DNA of 63,832 bases, the filler included. It is 6 parts of 6 records of this genome, joined end to end, with 100 filler letters (N's around TTAATTAATTAA, not from the genome) between each part and the next. Parts side by side here need not be neighbours in the genome. Positions count along the whole stretch, not along the records: positions 13,648 to 36,816 come from SRR22947727_3736; 5 more parts are not named here. The stretch is one strand, 5' to 3'. The notes below the pieces were generated by a model. The model was not told where the DNA came from and searched no databases. It saw only the letters and a program-made list of their open reading frames with translations. Within the stretch, counting starts at the first letter, position 1; every line of letters starts with the position of its first letter. The position numbers were made by a program, and so were the translations under genes. This document shows, in pieces, positions 1 to 38,025 of the stretch.

Positions 1-2
1 AA

Positions 3-3959: not shown

Positions 3960-3961
3960 GA

Positions 3962-3969
3962 TATAAATA
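3962..3969 (+). promoter_or_regulatory. T4-type late promoter TATAAATA
   Basis: Exact gp55 consensus 28 nt upstream of the ATG at 3998, in front of structural genes. Confidence 0.7.
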
Positions 3970-3997
3970 TCTAAAGGTATACTATTCTATTCTAATA

Positions 3998-6131: not shown

Positions 6132-6136
6132 TAGTT

Positions 6137-6556: not shown

Positions 6557-6656
6557 NNNNNNNNNNNNNNNNNNNNNNNNNNNNNNNNNNNNNNNNNNNN
6601 TTAATTAATTAANNNNNNNNNNNNNNNNNNNNNNNNNNNNNNNNNNNNNNNNNNNN
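6557..6656. other. Artificial contig linker (also at 13548-13647, 36817-36916, 44327-44426, 58387-58486)
   Basis: Identical N-run/TTAATTAATTAA/N-run with stops in all six frames. Gene content changes abruptly across each linker. Confidence 0.98.
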
Positions 6657-7250
6657 AATAATATTGAAAGCATAAAAGGTTTCATGCCGAGTCATGAGGG
6701 AGAGGCTCTATATAGTTGGGCTAATAAATTTTGTCTTAAAGGCCCTGTTATAGAAATAGGAACATACTGTGGCAAATCAACTATCTATCTAGCTCATGGT
6801 GCGCTTGAAGCTGATGAGATTGTTTATACAATTGATCATCATAGTGGTTCAGAAGAACATCAGATAAAGGAGGAATATTTTGATAGTGATGTTTATGATC
6901 AGTCAATTAATAGAGTCAATACATTTCCATTATTTTTAGAAAATATTAAAAATTATAATTTAGAAAATGTCGTACCAATAGTTGCTTCTTCTCTAATTAC
7001 TTCAAAATCATGGCAAACGTCAGCTGGTCTTATTTTTATTGATGGAGGCCATTCCATGGACTCAGCTCTAAGCGACTATAATTCATGGGCAAAGCATGTT
7101 GTTACTGGGGGAGCATTAGTTATTCATGATATTTATGAAGATCCAGAAAAAGGAGGTCAGGCTCCATATGAAATTTATAAAATAGCTTTGCAAAATGGAT
7201 TCGTAGAATACGAAAGAGTAGATACTATAGTTTGTCTAGTAAAGGTCTGA
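6657..7250 (+). CDS. Class I SAM methyltransferase (Methyltransf_24-like), 5'-truncated
   Basis: Frame open from 6657. KGFMP..EG, IEIGTYCGKST, IDHHSGSEEHQ, IFIDGGH, LVIHD. Confidence 0.85.
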   Translation, partial: NNIESIKGFMPSHEGEALYSWANKFCLKGPVIEIGTYCGKSTIYLAHGALEADEIVYTIDHHSGSEEHQIKEEYFDSDVYDQSINRVNTFPLFLENIKNYNLENVVPIVASSLITSKSWQTSAGLIFIDGGHSMDSALSDYNSWAKHVVTGGALVIHDIYEDPEKGGQAPYEIYKIALQNGFVEYERVDTIVCLVKV

Positions 7251-8291
7251 TTGATTTTCAAGAAAAAGGTTAAATCCTTTTGTGAATTCAAATATTGTAT
7301 CTGCTGCCAAGAGTACCGCAGCAGAGGTCCAGGTAGGCCTCTCATCTGGCCAAAAAATATTTTCAGAATGCTGCCATCCCATATATGGAATATTTTTTTC
7401 ATCAGATATTCTTAAGGACTCAGTAAAGATTTTTTTTGCTAATTTTTTATTCTTTGCCATAACAAGCGCAATAATAAATTCATTTGTCTCTGCAACAGTT
7501 ATCCATGGCTCCTCTTGCACACACCTTATTCCGAGACCTTCATCATAAAAATTATCTAAAGTATTTTTAATATGTTTTTCAATTTCATTACTAGAAAGAC
7601 ACCCTGACAATACTGGGTAGTATGAGTCCATTGAGAAATTTGATCGATCTTTCTGAAGGTCAAATAAGCCAAATGGCTTTCTAATAGCCTTTGATAATAA
7701 TTTATAAGAATTTATCCATTTATCTTGATTCTTGTAACCTAAAATCTTTCCTATAGCTATTGCACAATCAATGCCTTTAAGAATAGAGCTCGATCCGGTT
7801 AATAAATAGTCTCTTTCTATATTTCCACTATGATCGATAGACCAAGGTATGGTGCCATTTTTAATTTGGAATGAGAGTGAAAAGTTAATGGCTTTTTCTA
7901 AAGTAGGCCACAAAATTTTTAAAAACTCTTTATTAGAAAAAATCTTATAGTAATGCAAAAGCCCAATTGATATATAAGGTGAAAAATGGGTAGGTTTATT
8001 TTTTTCAAGTACGCTTCCATCATTTGCATACTTCGCATACCAACTTCCGTCCTTATTCTGATTCGATTTAAGCCATAGAAAAGCTTTTTCAGATTTCTCC
8101 ATATCTCCTATAAAATTTATAGCAGTTATTGATTCTATGAAATCCCATGGATCAAACGAGCCATCTGCATTTGATGGAATGGTGCCATTATCATTCTGTG
8201 ATTTAAGAACGTACTCTCCTATATGGTTAAAAAAAGACTTATCTTTTAAAGATTCGATCTCAAAGAGTTCTTTTGTTGGGAAAAATATCAT
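7236..8291 (-). CDS. Alpha/alpha-toroid protein (annotated as prenyltransferase-like; probable glycoside hydrolase, MmpH-like)
   Basis: QNDNGTIP, DPWDFIE, QNKDGSW, FSMDSYYPVL, WITVAET and WP.ERPTWTSAAV motifs; cluster context. Confidence 0.6.
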   Translation of the reverse strand: MIFFPTKELFEIESLKDKSFFNHIGEYVLKSQNDNGTIPSNADGSFDPWDFIESITAINFIGDMEKSEKAFLWLKSNQNKDGSWYAKYANDGSVLEKNKPTHFSPYISIGLLHYYKIFSNKEFLKILWPTLEKAINFSLSFQIKNGTIPWSIDHSGNIERDYLLTGSSSILKGIDCAIAIGKILGYKNQDKWINSYKLLSKAIRKPFGLFDLQKDRSNFSMDSYYPVLSGCLSSNEIEKHIKNTLDNFYDEGLGIRCVQEEPWITVAETNEFIIALVMAKNKKLAKKIFTESLRISDEKNIPYMGWQHSENIFWPDERPTWTSAAVLLAADTIFEFTKGFNLFLENQSDLY

Positions 8292-8998
8292 TCTTTTTTC
8301 TCGAAATACAAAGCCAAACTTTTTCCTAGGAATGGATTGAGGGCCTTATCAATTAAATCAATATAAAAAGGTTTCTGCAGTATATGTTTTTCTAAGATTC
8401 TCTTATAAATTTTAATAAAGAAATTATTGTCCTGATTTTTCCAGAATATGCATCTAAGCCACCAGTAAGGGCTATGAATAGAATGAAATCTTTCTGATCT
8501 TTTAAACACAAATCCTGCTTTTTTCACATCATCAATAATACCTTTTTTCTTGAATATTCTTACATGGCCTCCTGGCATATTCTGATACTCACCAGATATC
8601 ATCCAGCAAATTTTTTCTGGCCAATAAGATGGCACGCTAGCAAGAAATTTACCTCCAGGCTTTAAGACTCTATAAATTTCATCTAAAGCCAAATGATACT
8701 CATCAAGATGCTCAAGAACTTCTGAGCATATAACTAAGTCCAGAGAATTTGATGGAATAGGGAGTGAGTATGCTGATCCCTTTATGAAACTTGCGCCTTG
8801 ATTTGAAATTGATTTAAAAAATTCATACCCCTCCCTAGCCTTATCAAGTGATAGGTCATCCATATCCAAACCCATGCAAAAGGTATTATTAAAATTCTGC
8901 ATCACTCCAAAGACATGTCTGCCCTCGCCGCATCCAATATCGAGCATCGCACTGTTACCTTTAGGTAAGGTTATTTTGTTAAAGTTAAATGTGAGCAT
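8288..8998 (-). CDS. SAM-dependent methyltransferase (MeT1-like)
   Basis: MLTFNF, LDIGCGEGRH, CSEVLEH, GGHVRIF and HSPYWWL.C. Confidence 0.8.
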   Translation of the reverse strand: MLTFNFNKITLPKGNSAMLDIGCGEGRHVFGVMQNFNNTFCMGLDMDDLSLDKAREGYEFFKSISNQGASFIKGSAYSLPIPSNSLDLVICSEVLEHLDEYHLALDEIYRVLKPGGKFLASVPSYWPEKICWMISGEYQNMPGGHVRIFKKKGIIDDVKKAGFVFKRSERFHSIHSPYWWLRCIFWKNQDNNFFIKIYKRILEKHILQKPFYIDLIDKALNPFLGKSLALYFEKKE

Positions 8999-10253
8999 TT
9001 TGATTAAAATCTTTTATGTTATTAATTATTATGTCTTCGTATTGTTTTGATATCTTGCTCCAATTGAACTGACGAATTACATGCTCTCTTCCTTGAATAG
9101 CTTTATATTTATATTCCTCATAATTATTTAGTACGTCTTTTATAGAGTTGGCAAGAGAATTACTATTCCTAGCTTCTATTAAAGTAGCGTAATCATCAAC
9201 AAGCTCGGGTATAGAGGAGGTTTTAGCAGCAATTAATGGTGTTGCACAACTCATAGCCTCTATGACGGGGTAGCCGAACCCTTCGTATAATGAGCTAACT
9301 ATAGCTACTGAGCTTTTTGCGTACTCAATAGATATTTCTTCTTTTGTTAAGTTTGTCTTGAAATGTACTCTGCTATTAAGATTTAACTTCTTCATAAGCC
9401 TTGATGTATGACCGTCAACTCTCATTTTTCCAATAACAATTAATTCGATATCAATATCTTTCTTAAGCTCTGCAACTGCTTGAAGTGTAAAATCTAGTCC
9501 CTTGAGGGGAACATCTGCACTTGCAGTAGTGATTAGTCTATATTTATTACGTCTTATATTTTCATGTGGTCTAAATATATTTGTATCCAAGCCATTATGT
9601 ACAACAGAAATATTTCTTTCATCACAGTGAAAGTCGTTCACAATATCTCTCTTGGAACTCATAGAAACAGTTATAATTTTATTTATTTGTGGAGCTACTT
9701 TTTTTTGCATTTTTAGAAATGAGTACCACCTTTTCCTAGAAAGCCAATACAGGAATTTGCTGTTTGTCTCCAAATCATGCTTTAAATCCATTGTTATTGG
9801 ATGATGGATAATCTCTATAAAAGGAAATCTCTTTTGTATAGCTAGCATTCCATAGCTAAGAGACTGATTGTCGATAATAATATCGTAATGATTGTTTGCC
9901 TCAAGGAAGCTATCCACCCTCTTTCCAAATGAACGCATTTCAGGAAATCCTCCAAGAAGTGTGGATACAAACTCTTGAATATTAATAACACTTATAGGGT
10001 TTGTGACAAATTTCTTTAATCTATCCCTAAAACTAAATGTCTCAAAAAGATTCATACCGGGAAGTTTGATAAGTCTCACGCCTGAATAAAGTTCTGGGTA
10101 TGGCTCACCTGAAATAACATCTACTGTGTGGCCTAAAGAGGAAAGAGCTTGTGAAATATCTCTTACGTATATACCTTGACCTCCTCCAAATGGAGCAGAT
10201 CGATAACTTAAAATACCTATTTTAAGTTTAGTCACGAGCCAGTAGGTTTGCAT
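8985..10253 (-). CDS. GT4 glycosyltransferase (ManT-like)
   Basis: KIGILSYRS..GGGQGIYV, SG.PYP, ASADVPLKG and SLYEGFG.P..EAMSC. Confidence 0.85.
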   Translation of the reverse strand: MQTYWLVTKLKIGILSYRSAPFGGGQGIYVRDISQALSSLGHTVDVISGEPYPELYSGVRLIKLPGMNLFETFSFRDRLKKFVTNPISVINIQEFVSTLLGGFPEMRSFGKRVDSFLEANNHYDIIIDNQSLSYGMLAIQKRFPFIEIIHHPITMDLKHDLETNSKFLYWLSRKRWYSFLKMQKKVAPQINKIITVSMSSKRDIVNDFHCDERNISVVHNGLDTNIFRPHENIRRNKYRLITTASADVPLKGLDFTLQAVAELKKDIDIELIVIGKMRVDGHTSRLMKKLNLNSRVHFKTNLTKEEISIEYAKSSVAIVSSLYEGFGYPVIEAMSCATPLIAAKTSSIPELVDDYATLIEARNSNSLANSIKDVLNNYEEYKYKAIQGREHVIRQFNWSKISKQYEDIIINNIKDFNQNAHI

Positions 10254-11163
10254 ACGTCAACCATGAGCTGTATTTATCAGACTTTCCAGAAATAGCATCA
10301 GAATAAATAGTTTGAAGTTTTTCAGTAACATCACCTCTTTTACCTGACCCTATAGGTTTCATATCAAGGCTTGTTATTGGTGTTATCTCTACTGCTGTTC
10401 CTGTAAAGAATGCTTCATCAGAATTAGCCAAATCTTCATATGTAAGGTTTTTCTCAATAACTTCAAAGCCTTCATCGGAAGCAATTGTAATAACAGACTG
10501 TCTAGTTATACCATTCAGGCAATGATTGGTTGTTGGTGTAAAGATCTTATTGCCTTTGAGCATGAATATATTTTCGCCGCTTCCTTCGGATATAAATCCA
10601 TCTTTATCCATCAGCACTGCTTCATCTGCACCTTTTTTTAATGCTTCATGAAGCGCCATTGTAGAGTTGATGTATGTACCAATAATCTTATTTCCTGAAT
10701 GAAGTGGGTTTGAATATTGCTCATGAGAAGATTTTATAACTGAAATTCCATTTTCTTTTGCCTTGGGATCCATATAGGATGGCCATTCCCATGCAGCAAC
10801 TGCAACATTTACTGATAAGTTAAATGCTCTTATACCAAGGGACTCTGCTCCTAAATATACAATTGGTCTTATATAACCTTCTTCTAAATCATTCTTCTTA
10901 AAAATTTCTTTTTGGACGTTATTGAGGGTTTCTTTAGAAAATGGAATGTCAATATCGATCTTTTTAGCTGTATTAAAAAGTCTATCAGTATGGTCATTTA
11001 ACCTAAAAATTGCAGGGCCATTATTAGTCTTATAAGCTCTTACGCCTTCAAAAGCACCTGTACCATAATTGAGAGTATGTGACATTAGATGAACTAAGCT
11101 ATCATCCCATTTAACAAATTTTCCATTATTCCAGATTGATTTAGATTCGGTATTGTTAAACAT
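10228..11163 (-). CDS. ilvE: Branched-chain amino-acid aminotransferase
   Basis: YGTGAFEGVRAY, YIRP, EGSGENIF, LNGITR and FFTGTAVEITP. Likely start ATG 11163. Confidence 0.93.
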   Translation of the reverse strand: MFNNTESKSIWNNGKFVKWDDSLVHLMSHTLNYGTGAFEGVRAYKTNNGPAIFRLNDHTDRLFNTAKKIDIDIPFSKETLNNVQKEIFKKNDLEEGYIRPIVYLGAESLGIRAFNLSVNVAVAAWEWPSYMDPKAKENGISVIKSSHEQYSNPLHSGNKIIGTYINSTMALHEALKKGADEAVLMDKDGFISEGSGENIFMLKGNKIFTPTTNHCLNGITRQSVITIASDEGFEVIEKNLTYEDLANSDEAFFTGTAVEITPITSLDMKPIGSGKRGDVTEKLQTIYSDAISGKSDKYSSWLTYANLLARD

Positions 11164-11225
11164 ATATGCAAGGTTATAATTTACGCAGTTATTATGACAA
11201 ACAACCGGATATAACAAAAGAGAAA

Positions 11226-12602
11226 ATGGAAGTTAACAAATCAATTTTTAGAGAAAATGACATTAGAGGAACATATCCCGAGCAATTAAATGAATTCACT
11301 ATCGGTGAAATTGGAAAAGCAATTGCAATTAAGTGTAAAAAAGAAAATATAGGCTCTATATCAGTTGGGAGAGATGGAAGACTTTCAGGCGAATCGTTGC
11401 TAGATGCATTTTGTGAGAGCCTAGTGAACGCAGGTATAAATGTTACAAATATTGGTATGGTAACAAGTCCAATGCTTTATTTTGAAGCTAAAATAAATGA
11501 TACAAAAAGCGGAATCATCATCACTGGAAGTCATAACCCTAAGAATCATAATGGTCTTAAAATGGTTATTAACGACAAACCCATTTCCGGAACAGAAGTT
11601 CTTTCTTTGATTGAGGATATAAAAGATGAGATTGCTGAGAAAGGAACATTAAAAACGAAAGATATTAAAGAGGATTATTTAAATAAAGTTACTCAATCAG
11701 TTTCCATTTCAAACCCCTCAAGCTATAAAGTTGTCATTGATTGCGGCAATGGAGCTGCAGGGTGTATCGCTCCTGAGCTTTTTAAAAGAGTTGGTTGTGA
11801 GGTAATTGAGTTATTTAGTGAAGTTGATGGAAACTTCCCTAATCATCATCCGGATCCAAGTAAATTAGAGAATATGCAAGATCTGATTGAGAGCGTACTA
11901 AATAATAATGCTGATCTTGGACTCGCTTTTGATGGAGACGGTGATAGGGTTGGGCTAATAACAAATACTGGCGAAAATATATTTCCAGATAAATATATGA
12001 TGATGCTTTCTGAAAGAATTTTATCTAAGAAGTCTGGAGCAATAGTCTTTGATGTCAAATGTTCTAACCATCTTGATGAATTGATTATTAGGAATAATGG
12101 TGTGCCGGTAATGGCTCCAACTGGTCATTTTCATATTAAAAAAACAATCAAAGATAACAATGCTCTCTTGGGTGGTGAAATGAGTGGTCATATTTTTTTT
12201 AATGACAAGTGGTATGGTTTTGACGATGGTCCCTATTCAGGTGCAAGAATTATTGAAGCTTTATCTGAATACCCAGATGGCAAAAGCATATCAGATATTA
12301 TGAATACTTACCCCAAATCATTTTCAACTCCGGAATTAAATATTGATGTAACAGATGAAAATAAATTTCAAATTATCAAAGACTTTATTGATCAGAACAA
12401 TCTTGAGGGCGAAGAAAATACTATTGATGGTTTGAGAGTAAACTATGTAAATGGCTGGGGTCTAATTAGGGCATCTAATACCTCACCTAAATTAGTATTA
12501 AGATTTGAAGGTAATTCCATTGAAGATATGCATTATATACAAAATGAATTTCTTTCTGAGCTTGCTCGCATTTCACCTGATATTGTTATAAATTTAACCT
12601 AG
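11226..12602 (+). CDS. algC: Phosphomannomutase/phosphoglucomutase
   Basis: FRENDIRG, TGSHNP, FDGDGDR, GEMSGH and RASNT. Likely start ATG 11226. Confidence 0.92.
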   Translation: MEVNKSIFRENDIRGTYPEQLNEFTIGEIGKAIAIKCKKENIGSISVGRDGRLSGESLLDAFCESLVNAGINVTNIGMVTSPMLYFEAKINDTKSGIIITGSHNPKNHNGLKMVINDKPISGTEVLSLIEDIKDEIAEKGTLKTKDIKEDYLNKVTQSVSISNPSSYKVVIDCGNGAAGCIAPELFKRVGCEVIELFSEVDGNFPNHHPDPSKLENMQDLIESVLNNNADLGLAFDGDGDRVGLITNTGENIFPDKYMMMLSERILSKKSGAIVFDVKCSNHLDELIIRNNGVPVMAPTGHFHIKKTIKDNNALLGGEMSGHIFFNDKWYGFDDGPYSGARIIEALSEYPDGKSISDIMNTYPKSFSTPELNIDVTDENKFQIIKDFIDQNNLEGEENTIDGLRVNYVNGWGLIRASNTSPKLVLRFEGNSIEDMHYIQNEFLSELARISPDIVINLT

Positions 12603-12603
12603 T

Positions 12604-13173
12604 ATGGATAAAAACCGCAAAAACATTATTTTGCAATCATTAGCAGGGCTCCTTGAAGAAGCTTCATCTACTAAAATTACTACTGCTTTATTGGCAAAAA
12701 AATCAAACATAACTGAAGCAGCTCTTTATAGGCATTTTCCAAGCAAGAGATCTATCTATGCTGAGCTTTTTTCTTATTGTGATGAAGCTATTTTTTTAAA
12801 AAGTTCTGAATTAAAAAAATCTGATTTAAGCTCGAAAGAGAAAGTGATGAATATATTTAAATTTTTCATGCTCTTTGTTGAAAAAAATAAAGGCTTTGCT
12901 AGGCTTTTGTCCAGAGAGGCGCTGTCTCCTTCTGAAAAAAATGTATCTGACTCTGTGAATCAATTCTATGAAAGGTTTGAATTAACTATAAAACAAATTC
13001 TTGCTGAAGATAGTGACAAACTTATATCGCAACCAGGCATATCTGCTCAACTAATAACTACATATTTAGAAGGCAATGTTTCTAGGTATATAAGATCAAG
13101 ATTTAAAGATTCTCCAAGCAACTATATTGATAATGCTTGGGAGCTCTTATCAGTAAATTTATTTAAATCTTAA
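12604..13173 (+). CDS. slmA: Nucleoid occlusion factor SlmA (TetR family)
   Basis: KITTA.LA....TEAALYRHFPSK; follows algC as in other gammaproteobacteria. Confidence 0.8.
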   Translation: MDKNRKNIILQSLAGLLEEASSTKITTALLAKKSNITEAALYRHFPSKRSIYAELFSYCDEAIFLKSSELKKSDLSSKEKVMNIFKFFMLFVEKNKGFARLLSREALSPSEKNVSDSVNQFYERFELTIKQILAEDSDKLISQPGISAQLITTYLEGNVSRYIRSRFKDSPSNYIDNAWELLSVNLFKS

Positions 13174-13547
13174 TCCTCAATATTTTCGTCTAAAAATAAT
13201 TCAAAATATGTATTTTTTGCATTCTGAGATTTATCAATCTTGCCTGTTGTTCTGTCAACTTTGACATAACTGAGACTTGAAGGAATTTTTATTGGTTTTA
13301 TTTCTAAATCATCTAAGGCTACAGACATATAATCTAGCCATATAGGCATTGATATTGTTGATCCATATTCATTTTCTCCAAGAGATGTAAAATCATCAGT
13401 ACCCACCCAAACTGTTGTAACTAAATCATCATGGAATCCAGAAAACCAGGTACTTATTGCATCATTGGTAGTGCCTGTTTTGCCGCCAATATCATTTCGA
13501 TTTAAAAAAGCTGACTTTCTTCCGGCTGTCCCATTTTTCATGAAGTC
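13170..13547 (-). CDS. mrcA: Penicillin-binding protein 1A, C-terminal part (5'-truncated)
   Basis: GGKTGTTND..TWFSGF, VWVG.DD..SLG..EYG..MPIW. Confidence 0.85.
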   Translation of the reverse strand, partial: DFMKNGTAGRKSAFLNRNDIGGKTGTTNDAISTWFSGFHDDLVTTVWVGTDDFTSLGENEYGSTISMPIWLDYMSVALDDLEIKPIKIPSSLSYVKVDRTTGKIDKSQNAKNTYFELFLDENIED

Positions 13548-13647
13548 NNNNNNNNNNNNNNNNNNNNNNNNNNNNNNNNNNNNNNNNNNNNTTAATTAAT
13601 TAANNNNNNNNNNNNNNNNNNNNNNNNNNNNNNNNNNNNNNNNNNNN

Positions 13648-13693
13648 AAGTTTCCAGTTTCTTGCGCGAGTGTGGAGGAAACGCAAAAACTGG
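13648..13693 (+). ncRNA. Pseudoknot repeat, copy A (5'-truncated by the contig start)
   Basis: aag-ttt-ccagttt-cttg-c-gc-ga-gtgtggag-gaaacg-caa-aaactgg. Confidence 0.75.
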
Positions 13694-13721
13694 TTCTTAT
13701 TGAAATAAAACGTTAACATAT

Positions 13722-13783
13722 CTGTTCACAACGAAACCAAGTTTAGCCGGTCTTGAGTGAGTGAACAGCCCAGCCAAACCGGC
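13722..13783 (+). ncRNA. Pseudoknot repeat, copy B
   Basis: ctgttcac-aacgaa-ac-caag-ttta-gccggt-cttg-a-gt-ga-gtgaacag-cccagc-caa-accggc. P1 is a perfect 8 bp; pseudoknot gccggt/accggc. Confidence 0.8.
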
Positions 13784-13800
13784 ACTCTTACAAGAAAGAA

Positions 13801-15165
13801 ATGAAAATGAAAAAAGTTTTTGCAGGTTACTACACGCGGAATGCCAAGTTCTTTGGGATCAAGAAAAACCCTGAGTTTGAAAAGTCTTTAAAAGACACGA
13901 TTGCTTTTCAAAATAAGCTTTCTGTGTTCATTAAAAAAGAGTTGAACGATGGAGCAATTGTATATGTAAATAAGAGCAGTAAGGGTAAAGACAAACCAAA
14001 TACTGGTATCGTTGGATTCTCAGACGGAACAAGTATGACAGACAGTGGGTTCACAAAATATTACTGCGACCTCGTGAACGTAGACACTAATGGTAATAGC
14101 AACGCAATCAGAGCGGTGGTTCAATATGTATGCAACCGATATGCAGGATACAAAAGAAGGAACGGAGAAAAGATTCCGACAATACATTTCAAGGGTAAGG
14201 ATTATCATTTTAAAGACAATCAAATAAGACTTGACATTGAAAACAAAACCCTAGCTGTCAAAACCATGTACGGTAAATTTGACCTTGAGTACAAGGGATC
14301 TATCAAAGAACAGGAATTAAAAGATTATCTGGACGAGGCTGGAAAGTCAGATTTTGGGGGTAACTATATTGTAAAACAGAATTGTATCGTTGCCGGGATA
14401 AAGGTTCCATTCAAGCCGTCCTATGAGCCGGTTGGAGCATTAGGTACAGATTTCAATAAATCGGAAAAAGATAGAATTGTATTGTCGAATGGAGTTAAGT
14501 ATCCAGCAACAAAGAAACAGATCGACCTTGAGAAAGAGATCAAGAGATTAAAAGCAGTACTTGGAGAGAAGGATAAACCAGTCTCAGAACGTACAATCAG
14601 ATCAAAACAACGTAGAACCATACGTAAAAAGGACAAGAAGCTGCATAGTAAACAAAGGGTAGGATATCGTGAAACAGTTCTAGAAATTATAGAATATGTT
14701 AAGGAACACAGATTGTTGATGTGTATCGACAGTGTGGTAACTGGTCAAAGGAACGGAACTTTTGGTCATGACAAAATTAAAGAAATACTACTAACTGAAT
14801 GTCAAAATCAAGGTGTTCCATATTATATGGTTCCGTGTAAAAACACGTCGAGAAGATGTCCCGAATGTGGTCATATTCATTCAGACAATAGGCTTAGCAC
14901 TGATAACTTTTCATGTAAAAAGTGCGGCCATGTCGCAGACGCCCAATTAGTTGGTGCATTAAATGTGAAACATTACGGAGAACTGTTGTACAAGTCATGG
15001 GTTCCGTATGACAATTGGACCGCTGGGTCGAAAAAAAGGGCTGTTCCTACTTTATGTGAAGAATACGCAAAAGATGTCGATAGAAAATTCTCCTCACAAC
15101 AAAGCCAAGTTTTAGTAGTTTCTTGTGCGAGTGTGGAGAGTACACAAAAACTGCTTTTCACTTGA
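13801..15165 (+). CDS. TnpB/Cas12f-like RuvC + zinc-ribbon protein with altered catalytic triad
   Basis: 454 aa. RuvC-I GALGTDFN (D217), Arg/Lys-rich helix, RuvC-II MCIDSV (D310 where Glu is usual), TSRRCPECG...FSCKKCG, RuvC-III DAQLVGALNV (Q382 where Asp is usual). No tnpA nearby. Confidence 0.85.
   Translation: MKMKKVFAGYYTRNAKFFGIKKNPEFEKSLKDTIAFQNKLSVFIKKELNDGAIVYVNKSSKGKDKPNTGIVGFSDGTSMTDSGFTKYYCDLVNVDTNGNSNAIRAVVQYVCNRYAGYKRRNGEKIPTIHFKGKDYHFKDNQIRLDIENKTLAVKTMYGKFDLEYKGSIKEQELKDYLDEAGKSDFGGNYIVKQNCIVAGIKVPFKPSYEPVGALGTDFNKSEKDRIVLSNGVKYPATKKQIDLEKEIKRLKAVLGEKDKPVSERTIRSKQRRTIRKKDKKLHSKQRVGYRETVLEIIEYVKEHRLLMCIDSVVTGQRNGTFGHDKIKEILLTECQNQGVPYYMVPCKNTSRRCPECGHIHSDNRLSTDNFSCKKCGHVADAQLVGALNVKHYGELLYKSWVPYDNWTAGSKKRAVPTLCEEYAKDVDRKFSSQQSQVLVVSCASVESTQKLLFT
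15090..15155 (+). ncRNA. Pseudoknot repeat, copy C (inside the 3' end of the TnpB-like ORF)
   Basis: ctcctcac-aacaaa-gc-caag-tttt-agtagttt-cttg-t-gc-ga-gtgtggag-agtaca-caa-aaactgct. Confidence 0.78.
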
Positions 15166-15189
15166 CAATGTAAATATGTATGATATAAT
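15162..15189 (+). promoter_or_regulatory. Consensus sigma70 promoter with extended -10
   Basis: TTGACA (15162-67), 16 nt spacer ending TGA, TATAAT (15184-89). Confidence 0.8.
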
Positions 15190-15191
15190 GA

Positions 15192-15254
15192 CTGTACCAG
15201 ACAAAACCAAGTTTCCTGTTTCTTGAGTGATGGTGCAGCAGCTACAAAAACAGG
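15192..15254 (+). ncRNA. Pseudoknot repeat, copy D
   Basis: ctgtacca-gacaaa-ac-caag-ttt-cctgttt-cttg-a-gt-ga-tggtgcag-cagcta-caa-aaacagg. Confidence 0.8.
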
Positions 15255-15256
15255 TT

Positions 15257-15320
15257 CTTCACACAACAAAGCCAGGTTTCCAGTTTCTTGCGCGAGTATG
15301 GAGGGTTATCAAAAACTGGA
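15257..15320 (+). ncRNA. Pseudoknot repeat, copy E
   Basis: cttcacac-aacaaa-gc-cagg-ttt-ccagttt-cttg-c-gc-ga-gtatggag-ggttat-caa-aaactgga. Ends 23 nt before the dnaE ATG. Confidence 0.8.
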
Positions 15321-15343
15321 TTTTTACTCATTGAAAGAAAATC

Positions 15344-16948
15344 ATGAAATACCCACTTTGTAATTACACACACTACTCGTTGCTCAAGGGCTTCTCTAAG
15401 CCTAAACAGCTATCCAAGAAATGTGTTGAGAATGGATACGTTGCCTGCGGCATCTCTGACTACAAGTCAATATCGGGGGCGGTGTCGTTCCATAAGTCCT
15501 GTCAGGACAGTGGCATTAAACCCATCATCGGGTGTTCGTTTGATCACTACACCCTGTTCGCAAGAAATAAGCAGGGCTGGTTTGACTTGATTGAGATTGT
15601 GTCCTCGTTAAGCGCAGAGGGCAATGAGTATTTTCACATTACGAAAGAAATTTGCAAGCGTAACAATCTGATCTGTGTAACTATCGATCAGTCTCCGTGT
15701 GATGCCTCTCTAACATTCAAGCACACCTCTCTAACATCGCCCTCTCATTACGTTGAACAAGCAGACGCTCACCTTCATAGAATACTACTGTGTTCAGCCA
15801 TGAAGACAACCCTGCCAAAAGTTAATACCCTTTTGAGGTCCGGTGGTCTGAAACAAAATGAGGAATTCTTTTTAAAGGACACTTTTCATGTAAAGTCAAA
15901 AGATGAAATGTCCGATGATGAGAATGGTGAGAGATCCCTAGAGCAGATATACAACCTGTGTGAAGACTATGAAATCCTCAGCCCTCCAATGCTTCCGAAG
16001 TTCCCAACCCCAACAGGAGAGTCCGAAGAAGAGTATCTCAAAAGTCTAGCTAGAAAAGGATGGATAAAATTCCTACACAATACGGGAAAGATAGAGGAGA
16101 AAGAAGACAAGCAAAGATACCTCGATAGATTCACTATGGAATTTGATGTCATTAAGCAAGCAAACCTTTTTGGTTACTTTCTAATCGTTCAAGATATCAT
16201 ACGCTATGTAAAGAGCCAAGGGTGGCTTTCGGGGCCGGGTAGAGGTTCTGCTGCTGGATGTTTAATATCCTACATTGTTGAAATCACAGAGATAGACCCT
16301 ATAGAATTCGACCTATTATTTGAAAGGTTTTTTAATGCCGCAAGAACTGATGCTCTACCGGACATTGATATGGATGTCCCAGCTAACAAGCGTGATGATA
16401 TCATTGAATATCTTAAAAATACTTACGGAAAAGATAACGTGAGTCAGATGCTTACATTTGGCAGGCTACAGGGAAGAAGCGCAGTAAAAGAGGTTTTGAG
16501 AGCTAGTGACGTGTGTGGCTTTAGTGAAATGAATGAAATCACAAGCCATATAGCAGACGAAGCGGCGATCTCCGACCAGCTACAGGAAATGGACGAGGAA
16601 GACAGGTCCATTATCAGATGGTCTCTGGTTAATAATGCTGACGATCTGCGAGACTTTTGCTTTATTGACGAAGACGGTAATCTGGATGGCGACTATGCAG
16701 AATTCTTTGACCAAGCTATACAGATCGAGGGTACATTTAAAACACAGGGCAAACACCCTGCCGGGGTTGTTATTTCGGCAGAACCCCTTTACAAAGTTTG
16801 CCCAATGGTAAATCAAAAAAGCGGAGGAGAAAAAATTGCAGGACTAGAAATGGCTGATTTGGAAGCACTCGGACATGTTAAGTTTGATGTGCTTGGACTT
16901 ACCTTACTTGATAAAATTATGAAAATAGAGGATCTGATAAATGGCTAG
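15344..16948 (+). CDS. dnaE: DNA polymerase III alpha, N-terminal half (degenerate PHP + palm)
   Basis: THYSLLKG, GPGRGSAAG, LLFERF, PDIDMD, GKHPAGVVI and VKFDVLGL. Confidence 0.92.
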   Translation: MKYPLCNYTHYSLLKGFSKPKQLSKKCVENGYVACGISDYKSISGAVSFHKSCQDSGIKPIIGCSFDHYTLFARNKQGWFDLIEIVSSLSAEGNEYFHITKEICKRNNLICVTIDQSPCDASLTFKHTSLTSPSHYVEQADAHLHRILLCSAMKTTLPKVNTLLRSGGLKQNEEFFLKDTFHVKSKDEMSDDENGERSLEQIYNLCEDYEILSPPMLPKFPTPTGESEEEYLKSLARKGWIKFLHNTGKIEEKEDKQRYLDRFTMEFDVIKQANLFGYFLIVQDIIRYVKSQGWLSGPGRGSAAGCLISYIVEITEIDPIEFDLLFERFFNAARTDALPDIDMDVPANKRDDIIEYLKNTYGKDNVSQMLTFGRLQGRSAVKEVLRASDVCGFSEMNEITSHIADEAAISDQLQEMDEEDRSIIRWSLVNNADDLRDFCFIDEDGNLDGDYAEFFDQAIQIEGTFKTQGKHPAGVVISAEPLYKVCPMVNQKSGGEKIAGLEMADLEALGHVKFDVLGLTLLDKIMKIEDLING

Positions 16949-17618
16949 CAGAGATATAATTGTATTCGACTTTGAAACAGGTGGTAGAGACCCCAACGTG
17001 TGCCAACCGACACAGTTGGCGGCTATAGCCCTAGATGGTAGAAACTTTAGAATGAAAGGGTCTTTCAACAGCGAGATCCGCGCAGAAGTAGACGACGAAA
17101 AGGCCGTCAAGAAGGGTCTTGGACCCATTGAGGAAGGGGCGCTTAAAGTAACCGGAAAGACGCGGGCAGAAATTGCCAAAGCTCCGCACCTTAAAACCGT
17201 GTGGAAAAAGTTTACTCAGTTTGTAGACAAGTACAACTGGAAGGGTACGCCGTTCTTTGCTCCTATTCCAGCAGGATTTAATATCATTGGGTACGACATG
17301 GTCATCATTAATAGACTATGTAAAGAGTTTGGACCATACGATGATAAAAGAGAGCGTCAAAAACTATTTAGTGCAGTATACAAGATTGATGTTATGGATA
17401 ATGTTTTTATGTGGACAGAGGGCGACCCTAGCGTCAAATCTATTAGTATGGACGCGATGAGAGAAAGAATGGGTATGTCTACTGAAAACTCTCACGACGC
17501 CCTACAGGACGTTAAAGACACTGCAAACATAATGATTAAGTTTATGAAGACTCACCGCGCTGTATACAGAAATCTAAAAGTTGAAAACGCCTTTGCTAAC
17601 GGAGACCTGTATGTCTAA
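16941..17618 (+). CDS. DEDDh 3'-5' exonuclease (DnaQ/epsilon-like)
   Basis: FDFETGG, GFNIIGYD and HDALQDV. Confidence 0.88.
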   Translation: MASRDIIVFDFETGGRDPNVCQPTQLAAIALDGRNFRMKGSFNSEIRAEVDDEKAVKKGLGPIEEGALKVTGKTRAEIAKAPHLKTVWKKFTQFVDKYNWKGTPFFAPIPAGFNIIGYDMVIINRLCKEFGPYDDKRERQKLFSAVYKIDVMDNVFMWTEGDPSVKSISMDAMRERMGMSTENSHDALQDVKDTANIMIKFMKTHRAVYRNLKVENAFANGDLYV

Positions 17619-19161
17619 GGTCGATACAAACGACCAGAAAACGTGGGATCTATTCAATAAGGGGTACACAAAAGGTGTATTCCAACTTGAAAGTAATCAT
17701 GGAAGAAATTGGTCTAGAAAATTAGCCCCATCAAACCTTGAAGAGTTGTCGGCCTTGATAGCAATTATCAGGCCGGGAACCCAAAAGGAGCAGCGTCAGC
17801 AATTCGTTGATAGAAAACATGGGCGTGAAGAGGTTACTTACCTAGACAAGTCTCTAGAAGAGATCCTCAAAAAGACGTATGGTATTTTAGTTTATCAAGA
17901 GCAATCTATGCGTATAGCCCAGAAGCTAGCAGGGTTCGACCTTAAAGAAGCTGACGAGCTACGTAAAGCCATTGGTAAGAAAAAGGCCGACCTTATGGCT
18001 AAGATTAAGACTAAGTTTATCAAGGGCTGTATAAAGCAAAAGGTCGTAACGAAGGAAGCCTCAGAGGAGATATTTGGATGGATTGAAAAGTCGGCTCGCT
18101 ATGCGTTTAATAAGTCTCACAGTGTGGCATATGCTGTGAACGCTTATAATACAGCTTGGTACAAAGCGAACCATACAACGGAGTTTTTCCTGTCTTACCT
18201 ATACTATGCCGCTGACAAGCAAGATCCTCATCGGGAAGTCTACGAATTGGTTTCGGAAGCTAAACTATTTTCTATCGAAACAAAAATACCAAACCTGACA
18301 CAGTTTAGTCAAAAGTTTGTTACGGTTGGTAGAGATATTTACTTTGGGATTAAGGATGTCAAATCCCTGACTGGCGTTACTGGAGATAAAGTTATCTCAT
18401 CAATAGAAGGCGTTGAGGAAGAGACCAGGATAAAGTCTAAAAATCTAAAATGGCTAGACGTTTTGATCTATCTGTCTCCTAAAGTTAATGCTACGGCTTT
18501 TAAGGCTCTAGCGTCTATCGGGTTCTTTAGCACAAAGTCTACAAATGTCTCACGCAACAAAGCCTTATACGAGTATGAAATATTCAAAATGCTCACCAAG
18601 AAGGAAAAGGAGTGGGTCTTAAATAACTACTCAGATAAAAAGTGGACAACCCTAGAAGAGTGTATGATAGATCTATGCCCAACAAAGAAAAACGGTGGCG
18701 GAACACATAATGTAGCTCGCAGTCAATTGATTGAGAATGAATTAGAAATGATTCGCAATCCACCGTTCAGCCTGGACGACGACCCCTCTTGGATCGTAGC
18801 CCAAGAGGTTAAGTTTCTGGGGTGTCCAATTTCCCTCGCTAAAATTGATGCCGCCGATACGTCGGAAGCTACTACGACCTGTAAAGAAATTGTAGACGGC
18901 AAAAAAGGAAAGAACCTATGCGTAGCTGGAAACATAGTCAGAGAATCATCCTTCAAAACTAAAAACGGAAAGAGCGCGGGACAATTAATGTCATTTCTAA
19001 CAATTGAAGATGACACTTGCACCCTTGATGGCGTTGTTGTTTTTCCAGAGGCTCGGAAGCTACACGAGTATATGTTATACGAAGGAAACAACGCGCTTTT
19101 CTGCGGAGAGGTCAAAAAAGGGGACAATTCCTTTATTATTGAGAAAATTCACGAAATTTAA
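17611..19161 (+). CDS. dnaE: DNA polymerase III alpha, C-terminal half (fingers, HhH, OB fold)
   Basis: TKGVFQLES, AIIRPG, TYGILVYQEQ.M, ADELRKAIGKK, YAFNKSHSVAY and OB-fold MSFLTIEDD. Likely start ATG 17611. Confidence 0.92.
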   Translation: MSKVDTNDQKTWDLFNKGYTKGVFQLESNHGRNWSRKLAPSNLEELSALIAIIRPGTQKEQRQQFVDRKHGREEVTYLDKSLEEILKKTYGILVYQEQSMRIAQKLAGFDLKEADELRKAIGKKKADLMAKIKTKFIKGCIKQKVVTKEASEEIFGWIEKSARYAFNKSHSVAYAVNAYNTAWYKANHTTEFFLSYLYYAADKQDPHREVYELVSEAKLFSIETKIPNLTQFSQKFVTVGRDIYFGIKDVKSLTGVTGDKVISSIEGVEEETRIKSKNLKWLDVLIYLSPKVNATAFKALASIGFFSTKSTNVSRNKALYEYEIFKMLTKKEKEWVLNNYSDKKWTTLEECMIDLCPTKKNGGGTHNVARSQLIENELEMIRNPPFSLDDDPSWIVAQEVKFLGCPISLAKIDAADTSEATTTCKEIVDGKKGKNLCVAGNIVRESSFKTKNGKSAGQLMSFLTIEDDTCTLDGVVVFPEARKLHEYMLYEGNNALFCGEVKKGDNSFIIEKIHEI

Positions 19162-19639: not shown

Positions 19640-21322
19640 ATGAGAAAAAAGCGTATACTTTTTTGTAGCGAAGCGACCTTCCTAAATACGGGCTATGCTA
19701 CTTATACTAGAGAAATTCTCAATTACCTGCACTCTACTGGCAAGTATGAGATTGCAGAAATGGCATCTTACGGTCAACGTAACGACCCACGGGCAGCAAA
19801 CATACCGTGGAAGTATTATGGCGTTATGCCCAATGGAGACTGTGAACCAAAAGCCTCGGAAGAAGAACGCAGACAGTATGACTCAAAGGGTACTAACCAA
19901 TTTGGCGAGTGGATTTTTGAACACGTCTGTTTAGATTTTTTACCAGATATCGTCTGTGATATACGTGACTTCTGGATGTTAGATTTTGCAGAAAGGTCAC
20001 CATTCCGACCTTACTTTAAGTGGGCTATCATGCCTACTGTAGATGCGAGACCACAGGCTAGACAGTGGATCGCTACATACGCCTCTGCCGATGCCTGTTT
20101 TACATACTCAGATTGGGCGGGTGGTGTCTTGACGGACCAGTCGGGAGGAAAGATTAATTATCTAGGAAGCGCCCCGCCGTCAGCCCACCCCGCCTATCAT
20201 CCTGTTGAAGATAAGAAGGCTCATAAGCAAAAGTATGGGATAGACCCCGATTATAATATCATCGGAATGGTAGCGAGAAACCAACGTCGTAAGCTGTATC
20301 CTGATCTGTTTGAGGCTTTCAAAAAGTTCTTAGATCAAGCAAAGAGTAAAAAATACTACCTCTATTGCCATACTAGCTATCCAGACTTGGGCTGGGATAT
20401 TCCAGAACTCCTACAGCAGCACGAGCTATCGTCTCATGTGCTATTTACATACATATGCAACGAAACACAAAAGCCGTTCCCTTCGCTGTTTAAGGGGGCA
20501 GTGGCCCAATCCCCATTTACGGGCAAGTGGTGTGCCACACTATCAAACGTTAAAAACGGCGCGTCTTATGAGGATCTTTCCGAAATTGTAAATCTTTTTG
20601 ACCTCTATACTCAGTATGCCAACTGTGAGGGTTTTGGCTTGCCGTATGTAGAAGCTGCGGCTTGTGGCATACCAGTGTGCGGCACTGACTACTCCGCTAT
20701 GGAGAGTGAGATTAGAAAACTGGAAGGTTATCCTCTTAAACCAGCAGCCTTGTATAAGGAACTAGAGACGGGTTGTTTACGTGCAGTTCCCGACAACGAT
20801 GCGGCAGCTAAATTCTTTTTAAGTTTCTTCCAGGATAAAGACGACGAGGAACGTGCCAACGAGGGCAAATGGACGAGGGAAAACTTTGAGAAGCATTTCC
20901 AGTGGCATCTCAGTGGTAAAAAATGGGAAGACTATTTCGATAGCGTAGATCTGCCACCTACGGAGAGAAGTTGGGGCGCTCCACCAAGAATACACCAGCC
21001 AGAGCCGATGCCCCAGGACATGCCCGAAGGTATAGAACCCGCTCAATTAGCTAAGTGGCTGATAGCAAAAGTTCTTGGAGAGCCAGAGAAACTGAATACG
21101 TTCCTCGAAATGAGACTCACCAGAGACCTGATGTATAAAACTACAACCTCTATGACCGGAGGTATGTATTTTAATGAAGCTTCGGCAGCATTCGACAATC
21201 CAAATACTAGACAGCCCTTTAGCCTGGAAGATGCCTACAATAATTTTGCAGGGATGTGCGACAGAAGAAACCAATGGGAACAGGCTAGAGCCAATAGAAT
21301 GAAGCAACATAGTAATGCTTAA
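19640..21322 (+). CDS. GT4 (GT-B) glycosyltransferase
   Basis: TGYA.Y, RNQRRK.YPDLF and EGFGLPYVEAAACG. Confidence 0.85.
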   Translation: MRKKRILFCSEATFLNTGYATYTREILNYLHSTGKYEIAEMASYGQRNDPRAANIPWKYYGVMPNGDCEPKASEEERRQYDSKGTNQFGEWIFEHVCLDFLPDIVCDIRDFWMLDFAERSPFRPYFKWAIMPTVDARPQARQWIATYASADACFTYSDWAGGVLTDQSGGKINYLGSAPPSAHPAYHPVEDKKAHKQKYGIDPDYNIIGMVARNQRRKLYPDLFEAFKKFLDQAKSKKYYLYCHTSYPDLGWDIPELLQQHELSSHVLFTYICNETQKPFPSLFKGAVAQSPFTGKWCATLSNVKNGASYEDLSEIVNLFDLYTQYANCEGFGLPYVEAAACGIPVCGTDYSAMESEIRKLEGYPLKPAALYKELETGCLRAVPDNDAAAKFFLSFFQDKDDEERANEGKWTRENFEKHFQWHLSGKKWEDYFDSVDLPPTERSWGAPPRIHQPEPMPQDMPEGIEPAQLAKWLIAKVLGEPEKLNTFLEMRLTRDLMYKTTTSMTGGMYFNEASAAFDNPNTRQPFSLEDAYNNFAGMCDRRNQWEQARANRMKQHSNA

Positions 21323-22043
21323 GCTAGATAACGTTACACTACTAACGCTGTTCTGGGGAGATAATGACCACTCCTTGAATTCGATAAAATCCATGCAAAA
21401 TTGTATGAATAAAATCTCATTTGGTGAGAAGGTTATTATAACAGACGGCGATTCGGCAAAAAGACATGACGAATTTATACAAAAACACGACATCAAATAT
21501 ATCCCCATGCAGGACTCGATCTCATCGAACCTAAAGGATGACACACAACGAGAAAACTTTTCAAACACCTTTCTGCAAAAGTTAAAAGACAGTGTCGAGA
21601 CAGAGTTTTGTTTGAACATACAGTCCGACTCTACAATAATAGATGAAGAAAAATGGACAGACGATTTTCTTGAGTATGACTATATAGGTGCTCCTTGGCC
21701 CGAATATATTTTAAGGACAAGTGATATGTGTCAGGATAAAATCAAATGGTTTCCCAACGTCGTGGGAAATGGAGGGTTTTCCATAAGGAGCAAGCGGTTC
21801 ATAGACTCTTGTTTTAACTTAGAGACTTTTCATAAGAACGAGGATCTTAACGTTTGCATCTTCAATTATTACAATATGGTAAACAGGGGTGTAAAATTTG
21901 CGCCAAAAGAGTTAGCATACAAGTTCTCTGTTGAGCACCCAATAAACACCCTGGGATCTTATGACAGGAATATTTTGTCTACGTATAAGTCATTTGGTTT
22001 TCACGGAGACTTTAACCCGGCTGGGATGGAAAAGATACTATGA
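21315..22043 (+). CDS. DUF5672-like putative glycosyltransferase
   Basis: IQSDS, FLEYDYIGAPW, VGNGGFSIRSK, NED and FGFHG. Confidence 0.75.
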   Translation: MLKLDNVTLLTLFWGDNDHSLNSIKSMQNCMNKISFGEKVIITDGDSAKRHDEFIQKHDIKYIPMQDSISSNLKDDTQRENFSNTFLQKLKDSVETEFCLNIQSDSTIIDEEKWTDDFLEYDYIGAPWPEYILRTSDMCQDKIKWFPNVVGNGGFSIRSKRFIDSCFNLETFHKNEDLNVCIFNYYNMVNRGVKFAPKELAYKFSVEHPINTLGSYDRNILSTYKSFGFHGDFNPAGMEKIL

Positions 22044-22603: not shown

Positions 22604-22626
22604 AAACACACTTAGAAGGGTTGATT

Positions 22627-30953: not shown

Positions 30954-31069
30954 TTGAGGAAATGATGTTAGCATAGATGAAACTTTTAGACACAAAAAAA
31001 TAGAAGCACATGTAGAAAAACCGCTGACAGGAAAAGGAAATCTTGAAATATACTGGAGGACTTAATCAG

Positions 31070-36655: not shown

Positions 36656-36720
36656 CTGTACCAAACAAAACCAAGTTTTTCCTGTTTCTTGCGTGATGGT
36701 GCAGCATCTACAAAAACAGG
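36656..36720 (+). ncRNA. Pseudoknot repeat, copy F
   Basis: ctgtacca-aacaaa-ac-caag-ttttt-cctgttt-cttg-c-gt-ga-tggtgcag-catcta-caa-aaacagg. Confidence 0.8.
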
Positions 36721-36722
36721 TT

Positions 36723-36781
36723 CTTACCTCAACAAAGTTATGTTTTCGGTCATACGCGAGAGGTAAGATCCACCAAACCGA
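36723..36781 (+). ncRNA. Pseudoknot repeat, copy G (most divergent; all helices compensated)
   Basis: cttacctc-aacaaa-gt-tatg-ttt-tcggt-cata-c-gc-ga-gaggtaag-atccac-caa-accga. Confidence 0.8.
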
Positions 36782-36782
36782 T

Positions 36783-36816
36783 CTTCACACAACAAAGCCA
36801 AGTTTCCAGTTTCTTG
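36783..36816 (+). ncRNA. Pseudoknot repeat, copy H (3'-truncated by the contig end)
   Basis: cttcacac-aacaaa-gc-caag-ttt-ccagttt-cttg. Confidence 0.75.
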
Positions 36817-38024: not shown

Positions 38025-38025
38025 T

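Follow-up and report, generated by a model that had tools for sequence, protein, structure and literature searches.

A TnpB-like gene of marine phages and the strings of a pseudoknot RNA that surround it

Are strings of small RNA pseudoknots the partners of the TnpB-like protein whose gene they surround? This question is raised by a locus in the stretch of 63,832 nucleotides (nt) analysed here, called the window in the following, which is composed of six contigs. At the start of the third contig (13648-36816), an open reading frame (ORF) for a protein of 454 amino acids (aa) with the predicted fold of TnpB and Cas12f lies among five copies of a structured unit. TnpB, Cas12, Fanzor and TldR proteins are ribonucleoproteins (RNPs) with an adjacently encoded RNA, the core of which is a pseudoknot beside the guide, and in tnpB genes the start of this omegaRNA is encoded at the 3' end of the ORF. 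A preliminary description, made from the sequence alone, had taken the protein for a probably nuclease-weak or dead TnpB served by several pseudoknots of about 65 nt. The pseudoknot unit is a real RNA family, and an uncatalogued one; that its copies are RNA ligands of the TnpB-like protein, descended from an omegaRNA scaffold and devoid of guides, is the explanation which we favour, at a probability of roughly 40%.

The pseudoknot unit and its association with the gene

The unit is an H-type pseudoknot of about 62 nt with three helices and 18 pairs, as seen in an alignment (A6) of 54 units from the window and its relatives. Helix S1 joins the first 8 nt of the unit to the segment after a conserved YGAG (8 pairs, 7 of them with double changes), helix S3 has 4 pairs (CAAG/CTTG, TAAG/CTTA, TGAG/CTCA; 3 with double changes), and helix S2 pairs the hairpin loop with the 3' tail that follows a conserved CAAA (6 pairs, 5 with double changes). 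The fold is a hairpin of stacked S1 and S3, the loop of which pairs with the 3' tail through S2. Standard pairs occupy 97.2% of the 799 cells, compared with 42.7-47.6% when the partners are slid by 1-3 columns; the covariation score of 0.654 (0.09-0.17 in the slid controls) was reached in none of 500 shuffles, and 15 of the 18 pairs show changes on both sides. Because neither S1 nor S3 was present in the model that built the alignment, the support for these two helices is independent of it. The pseudoknot of the preliminary description has thus proved real, albeit with three helices instead of two and a slightly shorter unit. Concerning single sequences, a 21-nt core occurs three times with up to 3 mismatches, and not once in 100 shuffles.

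The alignment contains 37 G-U cells, which would read A-C on the opposite strand, and the units lie on the strand of the gene without exception (54/54 with model R2, 62/62 with model R3); it follows that the element is a + strand RNA. Repeats acting as DNA, be it as replication-origin iterons or as recombination or packaging sites near polymerase genes, would agree with the position of the window's units next to replication genes. Such a role is extremely unlikely, given that the sequence varies while the pairing is kept, that the G-U cells and the complete strand bias contradict it (iterons were rejected on these grounds), that the units of relatives lie in tRNA clusters and between unrelated genes, and that the units are too diverged to be recognised by Tandem Repeats Finder (TRF), which reported no tandem array.

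Searched against Rfam at the gathering score, the whole window gave no match; at permissive thresholds the part 13648-15400 gave only chance-level matches to microRNA and long non-coding RNA families (E 0.9-8). The families of Rfam include IS605-orfB, RAGATH-18 and HEARO, which are of omegaRNA type. A tRNA-like element was considered and rejected, as ARAGORN calls only the flanking tRNAs in relatives; in the window itself it finds no tRNA genes.

Eight units, all on the + strand, are found in the third contig (Table 1), five of them at the TnpB-like ORF and three at the far contig end. Models R2 and R3 confirm the arrangement described beforehand for the five copies, with A and B upstream (B directly before the ATG), C inside the 3' end of the ORF, and D and E downstream; F, G and H are additional. 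The first covariance model had given seven + strand matches in the window, five around the ORF and two at the far end, between which G was found later. Unit C encodes the C-terminal tail of the protein, which is poorly conserved and predicted with low confidence. Since a predicted promoter lies between C and D, D and E would head the message of the DnaE genes downstream.

Among relatives, model R3 finds units in the window and in 17 of the 24 loci of the near family (36-43% identity), as opposed to none of 29 loci with distant TnpBs. The layout is kept: units stand directly upstream, one lies over the 3' end of the ORF, and all are on the strand of the gene; the copy number per set of strings ranges from 2 to about 13, on both sides of the gene. 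The loci missed by R3 are members of an H-type subgroup, in which variant units can be seen by eye (L013, L018, L020, L023, L024). Two to three of these are situated directly upstream in L013 and L018, and two more at the 3' end in all 10 loci aligned, the first of them overlapping the stop codon; these 3' units exhibit compensatory differences between loci. Two loci fetched after the models had been built also carry units: seven surround a 99%-identical gene in L092, and L093 has one just before and one just after the gene. The co-occurrence of homologues and motif, raised in the preliminary description as a point to be checked, is hence borne out in most of the near family.

In whole-record scans, all 11 units of G001 (56.9 kilobases, kb) lie within about 1.1 kb of the gene, 9 of the 10 units of G002 (92 kb) are near it, and so are both units of G003. 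The complete genome G004 (173.8 kb) has 4 of its 8 units within about 320 nt of the gene; the other four form two pairs at a distance of about 8 kb on either side, and the rest of the genome is free of units.

The nearest outgroup with a D-D-D site, L025, which is the sole D-type relative scanned, has no unit by R3. The D-type protein P0047 as a single query led to no locus, and an alignment of four proteins led to one locus only, L094, which is of H-type. Upstream of the gene in L025 there is a non-coding stretch of about 150 nt (5810-5960), which is not matched by R3; its start word resembles L1/S3a of the unit (TTAAAACCAAGTC), and a terminator hairpin at its end precedes a promoter-like site.

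In the metagenome contig L092 (3-863, 869-1153), a DUF1501 gene (Pfam E 5e-63) lies ahead of the string of units, in which the order is G-like, A-like, D-like and B-like and thus not that of the window. Such differences suggest that units have recombined, or that the genomic context on the left-hand side is another one.

The TnpB-like protein and its RuvC site

The only Pfam match of the 454-aa protein is PF07282, the Cas12f1-like TNB domain (residues 323-389, E 4.3e-13, 49.7 bits versus a cut-off of 26.3). With the NCBIfam model guided_TnpB (NF040570) it scores 49 bits, below the curated cut-off of 100, and this match is limited to the C-terminal 72 residues; PHROGs labels the protein a transposase. 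An AlphaFold2 (AF2) model built with 72 relatives in the alignment has a mean predicted local distance difference test (pLDDT) of 91.7 and a predicted template modelling score (pTM) of 0.86, and its top matches in Foldseek are AsCas12f (8j12, E 2e-14), the TnpBs of ISFba1 (8iaz) and ISDra2 (8h1j), and Fanzor2. As these matches to Cas12f/TnpB chains (probability 1.00, E 2e-14 to 3e-11) span about 415-440 aligned columns, the model identifies the protein as a full-length, divergent member of the TnpB/Cas12f fold, with bilobed WED/REC and RuvC parts and an inserted TNB zinc ribbon. The C-terminus is variable among relatives, and residues 446-454 have a pLDDT below 50.

The near family is small, and its sources are limited to marine metagenomes and viral contigs. 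A search of 185,579 species genomes yielded one match, on a 3.4-kb contig of a Flavobacteriales metagenome-assembled genome, and a metagenome scan yielded one close locus. Against cultured phages, blastn of the locus and of the flank of one relative gave no useful match, and tblastn of the protein matched only the TNB domain of five phage transposases. The clade is almost purely viral, and its gene occurs once per record in G001, G002 and G004.

Neither a Y1 or serine transposase nor Cas1/Cas2 is present among the Pfam-scanned ORFs of the contig (ORF 32994-33941 was scanned with PHROGs only), nor is a TnpA domain, and no search was aimed at transposon ends. Together with the TRF result, this agrees with the earlier statement that the contig has no transposase, cas1/cas2 or CRISPR spacers. 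The gene does not lie in a recognisable transposon or CRISPR locus, and a CRISPR array was rejected for want of spacers.

The RuvC triad had been read by manual alignment as D217/D310/Q382, compared with the canonical D-E-D, such that only D217 is identical. Three further alignments concur with this reading. In a hidden Markov model (HMM) alignment, the Q of the family falls under D401 of AsCas12f (7wju); hhalign (probability 98.1) matches Q382 to the D in the 'ANADQNAA' stretch of a TnpB whose three-domain Pfam architecture is canonical; and when the family HMM is used to align the TnpBs of the 29 unrelated viral loci, the D-E-D of 13 ordinary TnpBs maps exactly to 217/310/382. A search of PDB sequences with the RuvC-I/II sub-profile of the family found no TnpB; the mapping of RuvC-I and RuvC-II is based on the family HMM against the ordinary TnpBs and on the positions of strand ends in the AF2 model. 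The CxxC-CxxC zinc ribbon, a C4 finger between RuvC-II and RuvC-III, is intact, as claimed before: C353, C356, C372 and C375 are invariant in 17 sequences, and C353, C372 and C375 in 72.

How the site behaves in evolution can be judged from 156 family proteins of at least 300 aa each, comprising cluster representatives from a search of 1.84 billion proteins and close homologues. Their triads are DDD (61), DDH (59), DDQ (34) and DDG (1), with one row gapped. Positions 217 and 310 are thus D in 155 of the 156, and position 382 is D, H or Q in 154, all three of which are capable of metal ligation. Position 380 is not conserved (S, N, V and others), so that D380, considered earlier as a substitute for the third carboxylate, is no general substitute. 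Because the third position toggles among only three residues, where a decaying site would vary more widely, the family alignment points to a constrained and altered rather than a decayed site. The catalytic site is more probably altered than dead, and the nuclease-dead state assumed in the preliminary description has become doubtful.

TldRs are described as having deteriorating active sites, and they have often lost the zinc finger and the C-terminus of RuvC; operationally they were filtered as having fewer than two conserved DED residues (10.1101/2023.11.30.569447). The 454-aa protein falls within this filter (E to D and D to Q), whereas the family does not show decay of the TldR type. Conserved RuvC rearrangements, among them a branch with D to H in RuvC-III, were judged active by the authors of a survey of TnpB diversity (PMC10691335).

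These observations bear on a further explanation, in which the protein would be a nuclease-dead, RNA-guided DNA-binding regulator comparable to TldR or dCas12f and the pseudoknots its guide-RNA scaffolds. The single identical DED residue and the resulting place within the TldR filter speak in its favour, as do the lack of a transposase in the scanned ORFs and the consensus promoter within the array of units. The invariant zinc ribbon and the D, D, D/H/Q pattern of 154 out of 156 proteins are at odds with the deterioration described for TldRs, and a search of 0.94 megabases (Mb) revealed neither guide nor target; we thus regard a dead regulator as highly unlikely.

Partner RNA or general leader element

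The family to which the protein belongs consists of obligate RNPs, and in the flanks that were read or aligned, no conserved structured RNA other than the unit was noticed next to the gene; for this reason, the units are favoured as ligands. A further reason is that one unit sits where omegaRNAs begin and, when translated, yields the variable tail of the protein. Arrays of duplicated omegaRNAs are known from the survey cited above (PMC10691335). Any contact between protein and units is inferred. According to the proposed mechanism, an omegaRNA scaffold would have been duplicated and the individual guides lost, leaving strings of units. The protein would act on transcripts that carry units, by binding them and possibly by cutting the RNA at unit borders with its altered RuvC site, and the processing, stability or translation of whatever follows each string might be set in this way. 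Candidate targets would be its own cistron and the DnaE operon in the window, and transcripts of tRNA clusters in relatives. Action on the RNAs themselves appears likeliest because the units carry no guides. A broader scenario, in which a phage descendant of TnpB has moved from RNA-guided DNA cutting to the RNA level, its D-D-Q/H site recognising and perhaps cleaving at dispersed, guide-less 62-nt pseudoknots that stem from its own omegaRNA scaffold, while units spread via the tRNA cluster and gene leaders into a regulon tuning phage transcripts including those for replication, is unlikely in this full extent.

Several observations weigh against partnership. Viral contigs were searched with a pattern and then with the model, and units came up in records without the gene family, the protein search being positive on three controls: G006 (97 kb, 61% complete) has 5 units over 27 kb, G007 (54 kb) has 3, and several fragments of 10-17 kb without the gene also carry units. 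The occurrence of the motif apart from the protein, which the preliminary description had listed as one half of a refutation, is thus a fact; the other half, that homologues lack the motif, is not borne out. Even in records with the gene, single units or pairs lie 3.5-10 kb from it (L021, G002, G004), three further units of L021 being 3.5-4.2 kb away, and the more distant H-type branch L094 has no unit at all. Neighbouring units, which differ from one another, are separated by only 0-3 nt, which leaves no room for a spacer or guide between them. Furthermore, the 18 nt after 25 string-terminal units have no convincing second site in the 0.94 Mb, which contain no host genomes; the matches were only orthologous or same-locus copies or low-complexity near-matches. 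Of 45 string-terminal units, 5 have a tRNA within 12 nt; among the other 40, 22 end at most 61 nt from an ORF of 50 aa or more with an ATG start, and, again among the 40, 22 have at least five T in the next 10 nt. This placement suits a general leader or terminator element.

Accordingly, the principal rival holds that the units are a general cis-acting RNA module of these marine phages, of leader or intercistronic type, serving message-end protection, transcript termination or punctuation, or as a translational operator before the ribosome-binding site, with the TnpB-like gene, as a resident or formerly mobile gene, merely lodged in the RNA-gene hub (tRNA cluster) of the phage and without a specific partnership of protein and RNA. 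In addition to the gene-less records and the placement of terminal units, this explanation is consistent with units between ordinary protein genes (L062), with promoters directly before units (in the window and, by eye, in L001), and with H-type phages in which one and the same leader stands between a unit and each of two different genes. The blocks of units that flank the gene resemble each other (D/F and A/E, by eye), which would permit shuffling of the cassette by recombination. Seven of the 10 relatives scanned have tRNA genes (Ile-TAT, Arg-TCT, Leu-TAA, Met, Asp) on the strand of the units, interleaved with these in L002, L008 and L016 and adjacent to them in the four other loci. On the other hand, such a module does not readily account for the strong concentration at one gene (11/11, 9/10 and 4/8 units in G001, G002 and G004), nor for a unit before the ATG and another over the stop being kept across clades that are 36-43% identical to the window protein and differ in unit subtype; moreover, it would leave a family of obligate RNPs with no other conserved non-coding RNA in the flanks inspected. 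We consider a purely cis-acting module possible, although not probable.

A second rival, an active homing-type endonuclease, would take the terminal pseudoknot or pseudoknots as a minimal omegaRNA scaffold and the following sequence as guide; the RNP would cut related phage genomes lacking the insertion, and units and gene would spread by recombination. The unit overlapping the 3' end of the ORF, as omegaRNAs do, and the 3' tail closing the pseudoknot directly before the flank, as in the guide-proximal pseudoknot of TnpB/Cas12 RNAs (8h1j, 8exa), are compatible with this, as are the constrained catalytic position, the solo units at scattered intergenic sites, which resemble orphan guide genes, and the left-hand context of L092 (a DUF1501 gene), which differs from that of the window at 99% protein identity. 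Most units, however, abut the next unit or a tRNA, so that the 'guide' would be a constant structured RNA, and none of the 25 flanks has a convincing second-site match in the 0.94 Mb. The gene is present in a single copy per record, its repeated placement by tRNA genes in diverged phages is suggestive of long residence and not of recent mobility, and TnpA is missing from the scanned ORFs, while no transposon ends were noted, without a search aimed at them. Homing of this kind is accordingly judged quite unlikely, and the units remain, in our favoured explanation, guide-less ligands of the protein.

Concerning the surroundings of units in relatives, L001 shows at 5110-5126, right after a unit, a remnant that resembles the final 16 nt or so of a tRNA. 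At this place L002 has an intact tRNA-Ile(TAT) (5153-5226) between units; in L001, an 81-aa ORF lies downstream of the remnant. In the H-type locus L004 (2152-2260 and 4140-4257), and also in L006 and L014, the leader that follows a unit before two different genes is near-identical and consists of a T-run and then a ribosome-binding region of the CAAAACTTATTTTAAGGAG type, like a reused expression cassette. In L073 (2295-2675) and L075 (359-739), a phage transfer-messenger RNA (tmRNA, tag ANESLALAA) overlaps a call of tRNA-Val, about 1.4 kb from a solo unit.

Genomic setting and comparison with known systems

The features of the third contig are listed in Table 1.

Table 1. Positions of the TnpB-like gene, the pseudoknot units and associated features in the window
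Feature	Coordinates	Strand	Basis and remarks
Unit A	13648..13692	+	R2 37.8 bits, model positions 18-62; 5' part (S1a, L1) lost at contig start, N-linker ends at 13647
Unit B	13722..13783	+	R2 66 bits, R3 61 bits; 17 nt upstream of the TnpB-like ATG; S1 CTGTTCAC/GTGAACAG, perfect pairing
Predicted TnpB/Cas12f-fold protein, 454 aa	13801..15165	+	ORF, Pfam, HMM, AF2; RuvC D217/D310/Q382; zinc ribbon C353, C356, C372, C375
Unit C	15090..15154	+	R2 70.2 bits; inside 3' end of the TnpB-like ORF
Promoter, sigma-70 type	15162..15189	+	Consensus match, TTGACA-16-TATAAT with TG (extended -10), 12/12 hexamer positions; between C and D
Unit D	15192..15253	+	R2 62.9 bits, R3 61.3 bits
Unit E	15257..15319	+	R2 70 bits; about 25 nt upstream of the ATG (15344) of the DnaE N-terminal ORF, counted from the R3 end at 15318
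Downstream operon	15344..19161	+	ORF and domain scans; two ORFs for a DnaE-like polymerase, flanking an RNase T-type exonuclease ORF
Unit F	36656..36719	+	R2 64.6 bits; close to D by eye; after ORF 36305-36649
Unit G	36723..36782	+	R2 54.2 bits, R3 62 bits; S1 CTTACCTC/GAGGTAAG
Unit H	36783..36816	+	R2 23.5 bits; cut by contig end

The last 17 nt of the contig, in unit H, are identical to its first 17 nt, in unit A, and H and A may be one unit broken by assembly; in L092, a G-like unit followed by an A-like unit is found intact. By eye, D resembles F and E resembles A/H, so that the cassette of B, ORF, C and promoter is bracketed by similar blocks of units; the same bracketing is seen in L001 and L002.

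The six contigs of the window occupy 1-6556, 6657-13547, 13648-36816, 36917-44326, 44427-58386 and 58487-63832. They are split by ten runs of N in five pairs, the linkers (6557-6656, 13548-13647, 36817-36916, 44327-44426, 58387-58486) having the form N44-TTAATTAATTAA-N44. With a G+C content of about 40%, the third contig stands apart from its neighbours (about 30%; range of the others about 26-35%), and given this difference the six contigs may not all come from one organism. Its genes encode a DnaE-type polymerase, an RNase T-type exonuclease, a single-stranded DNA-binding protein (SSB) and enzymes of the glycosyltransferase, methyltransferase and sugar-nucleotide types. The DnaE-like ORFs (15344-16948, 534 aa, and 17581-19161, 526 aa) are both overlapped by the ends of the ORF for the 3'-5' exonuclease (16941-17618, 225 aa); a DnaE in two pieces also appears among Cellulophaga phages in the tblastn listing. 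Downstream of the replication genes follows a same-strand run of 16 kb (19640-35553) with glycosyltransferases (GT1, GT2, GT11), methyltransferases, a DegT aminotransferase, an epimerase and a cytidylyltransferase, an unusual cargo for a phage contig.

The same DNA is present in seawater and marine metagenome runs of several studies. Among contigs from RNA libraries (Logan contigs), 13657-13840, 15105-15301 and parts of the TnpB-like ORF are covered, as is an F-G-like relative; this indicates presence in RNA libraries, not transcription, ends or levels, and the parts not covered are uninformative.

Cas12 descends from TnpB, whose exaptations (Cas12 subtypes, TldR, sigma-linked dCas12f) are an active field of study. 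If units and protein are indeed partners, the locus would represent an RNP of the TnpB family in which the RNA is of a new kind and the function probably new as well, and its protein and RNA would be a compact recognition pair from which tools could be made; otherwise, the pseudoknot still counts as a new, widespread phage RNA element deserving a family entry. In either case, the toggling among D, H and Q at RuvC-III is a natural experiment on the third catalytic residue. A full-text literature search, judged mostly from abstracts, did not reveal guide-less strings of pseudoknots that flank a TnpB-family gene and are interspersed with tRNAs.

Among known RNA elements, the autoregulatory leader pseudoknot of phage T4 gene 32 and the small exoribonuclease-resistant pseudoknots of plant viruses act in cis. 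The units share with such leader or 3'-end pseudoknots the pairing of a hairpin loop with downstream sequence, the tandem occurrence, and the position, either where messages start or immediately upstream of an A/U-rich stretch and a ribosome-binding site; they have no relation to them in sequence or in Rfam, and they are concentrated around one gene of an RNA-binding family. In the type III toxin-antitoxin system ToxIN, tandem repeats are cut by the protein into pseudoknot units that bind it. The resemblance lies in tandem pseudoknot repeats beside a nuclease-family gene whose protein could cut them. The repeats of ToxI, however, are near-identical, 36 nt long and situated upstream only, and the endoRNase is unrelated, whereas the units described here measure 62 nt, are diverged with compensatory changes, and occur on both sides of the gene and elsewhere in the genome.

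The organisation of the locus is most readily compared with the TnpB-omegaRNA systems of IS200/IS605 and IS607 elements (ISDra2, 8h1j/8exa; ISFba1, 8iaz) and with Cas12f (AsCas12f, 8j12/7wju). The full-length fold and the TNB zinc ribbon are shared with these systems, as is a structured RNA with a pseudoknot core, overlapping the 3' end of the ORF on the same strand. Despite this similarity there are clear differences: the triad is D-D-Q instead of D-E-D, the score for guided_TnpB is 49 bits against the cut-off of 100, TnpA is missing from the scanned ORFs and a CRISPR array from the TRF result, and the RNA is a 62-nt unit in 2 to about 13 copies on both sides of the gene, with no recognisable guides. 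In contrast to type V CRISPR loci with Cas12f, the units abut and differ, and there are neither near-identical repeats with spacers nor, among the scanned ORFs, Cas1/Cas2.

TldR and the dCas12f/TnpB proteins associated with sigma factors are likewise phage-encoded TnpB descendants outside a transposon. For the sigma-associated ones, the survey describes arrays of duplicated omegaRNAs as well as irregular arrays whose repeats exceed 60 bp (PMC10691335). The present locus differs from both in its constrained site and intact zinc ribbon, and guide segments, a sigma factor, fliC and oppF are missing from the flanks examined. Finally, a conserved non-canonical RuvC residue is also found in the rearranged TnpB branches (RIIr/RIIIr, e.g., RIIIr-4 with D to H in RuvC-III); strings of pseudoknots and a tRNA context do not figure in their description, as far as it was available (PMC10691335). 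The same source lists RIIr-4, Y1-5 and RIIIr-4 as virus-specific branches, and the clade of the TnpB-like protein may correspond to one rearranged, virus-specific branch of that published tree.

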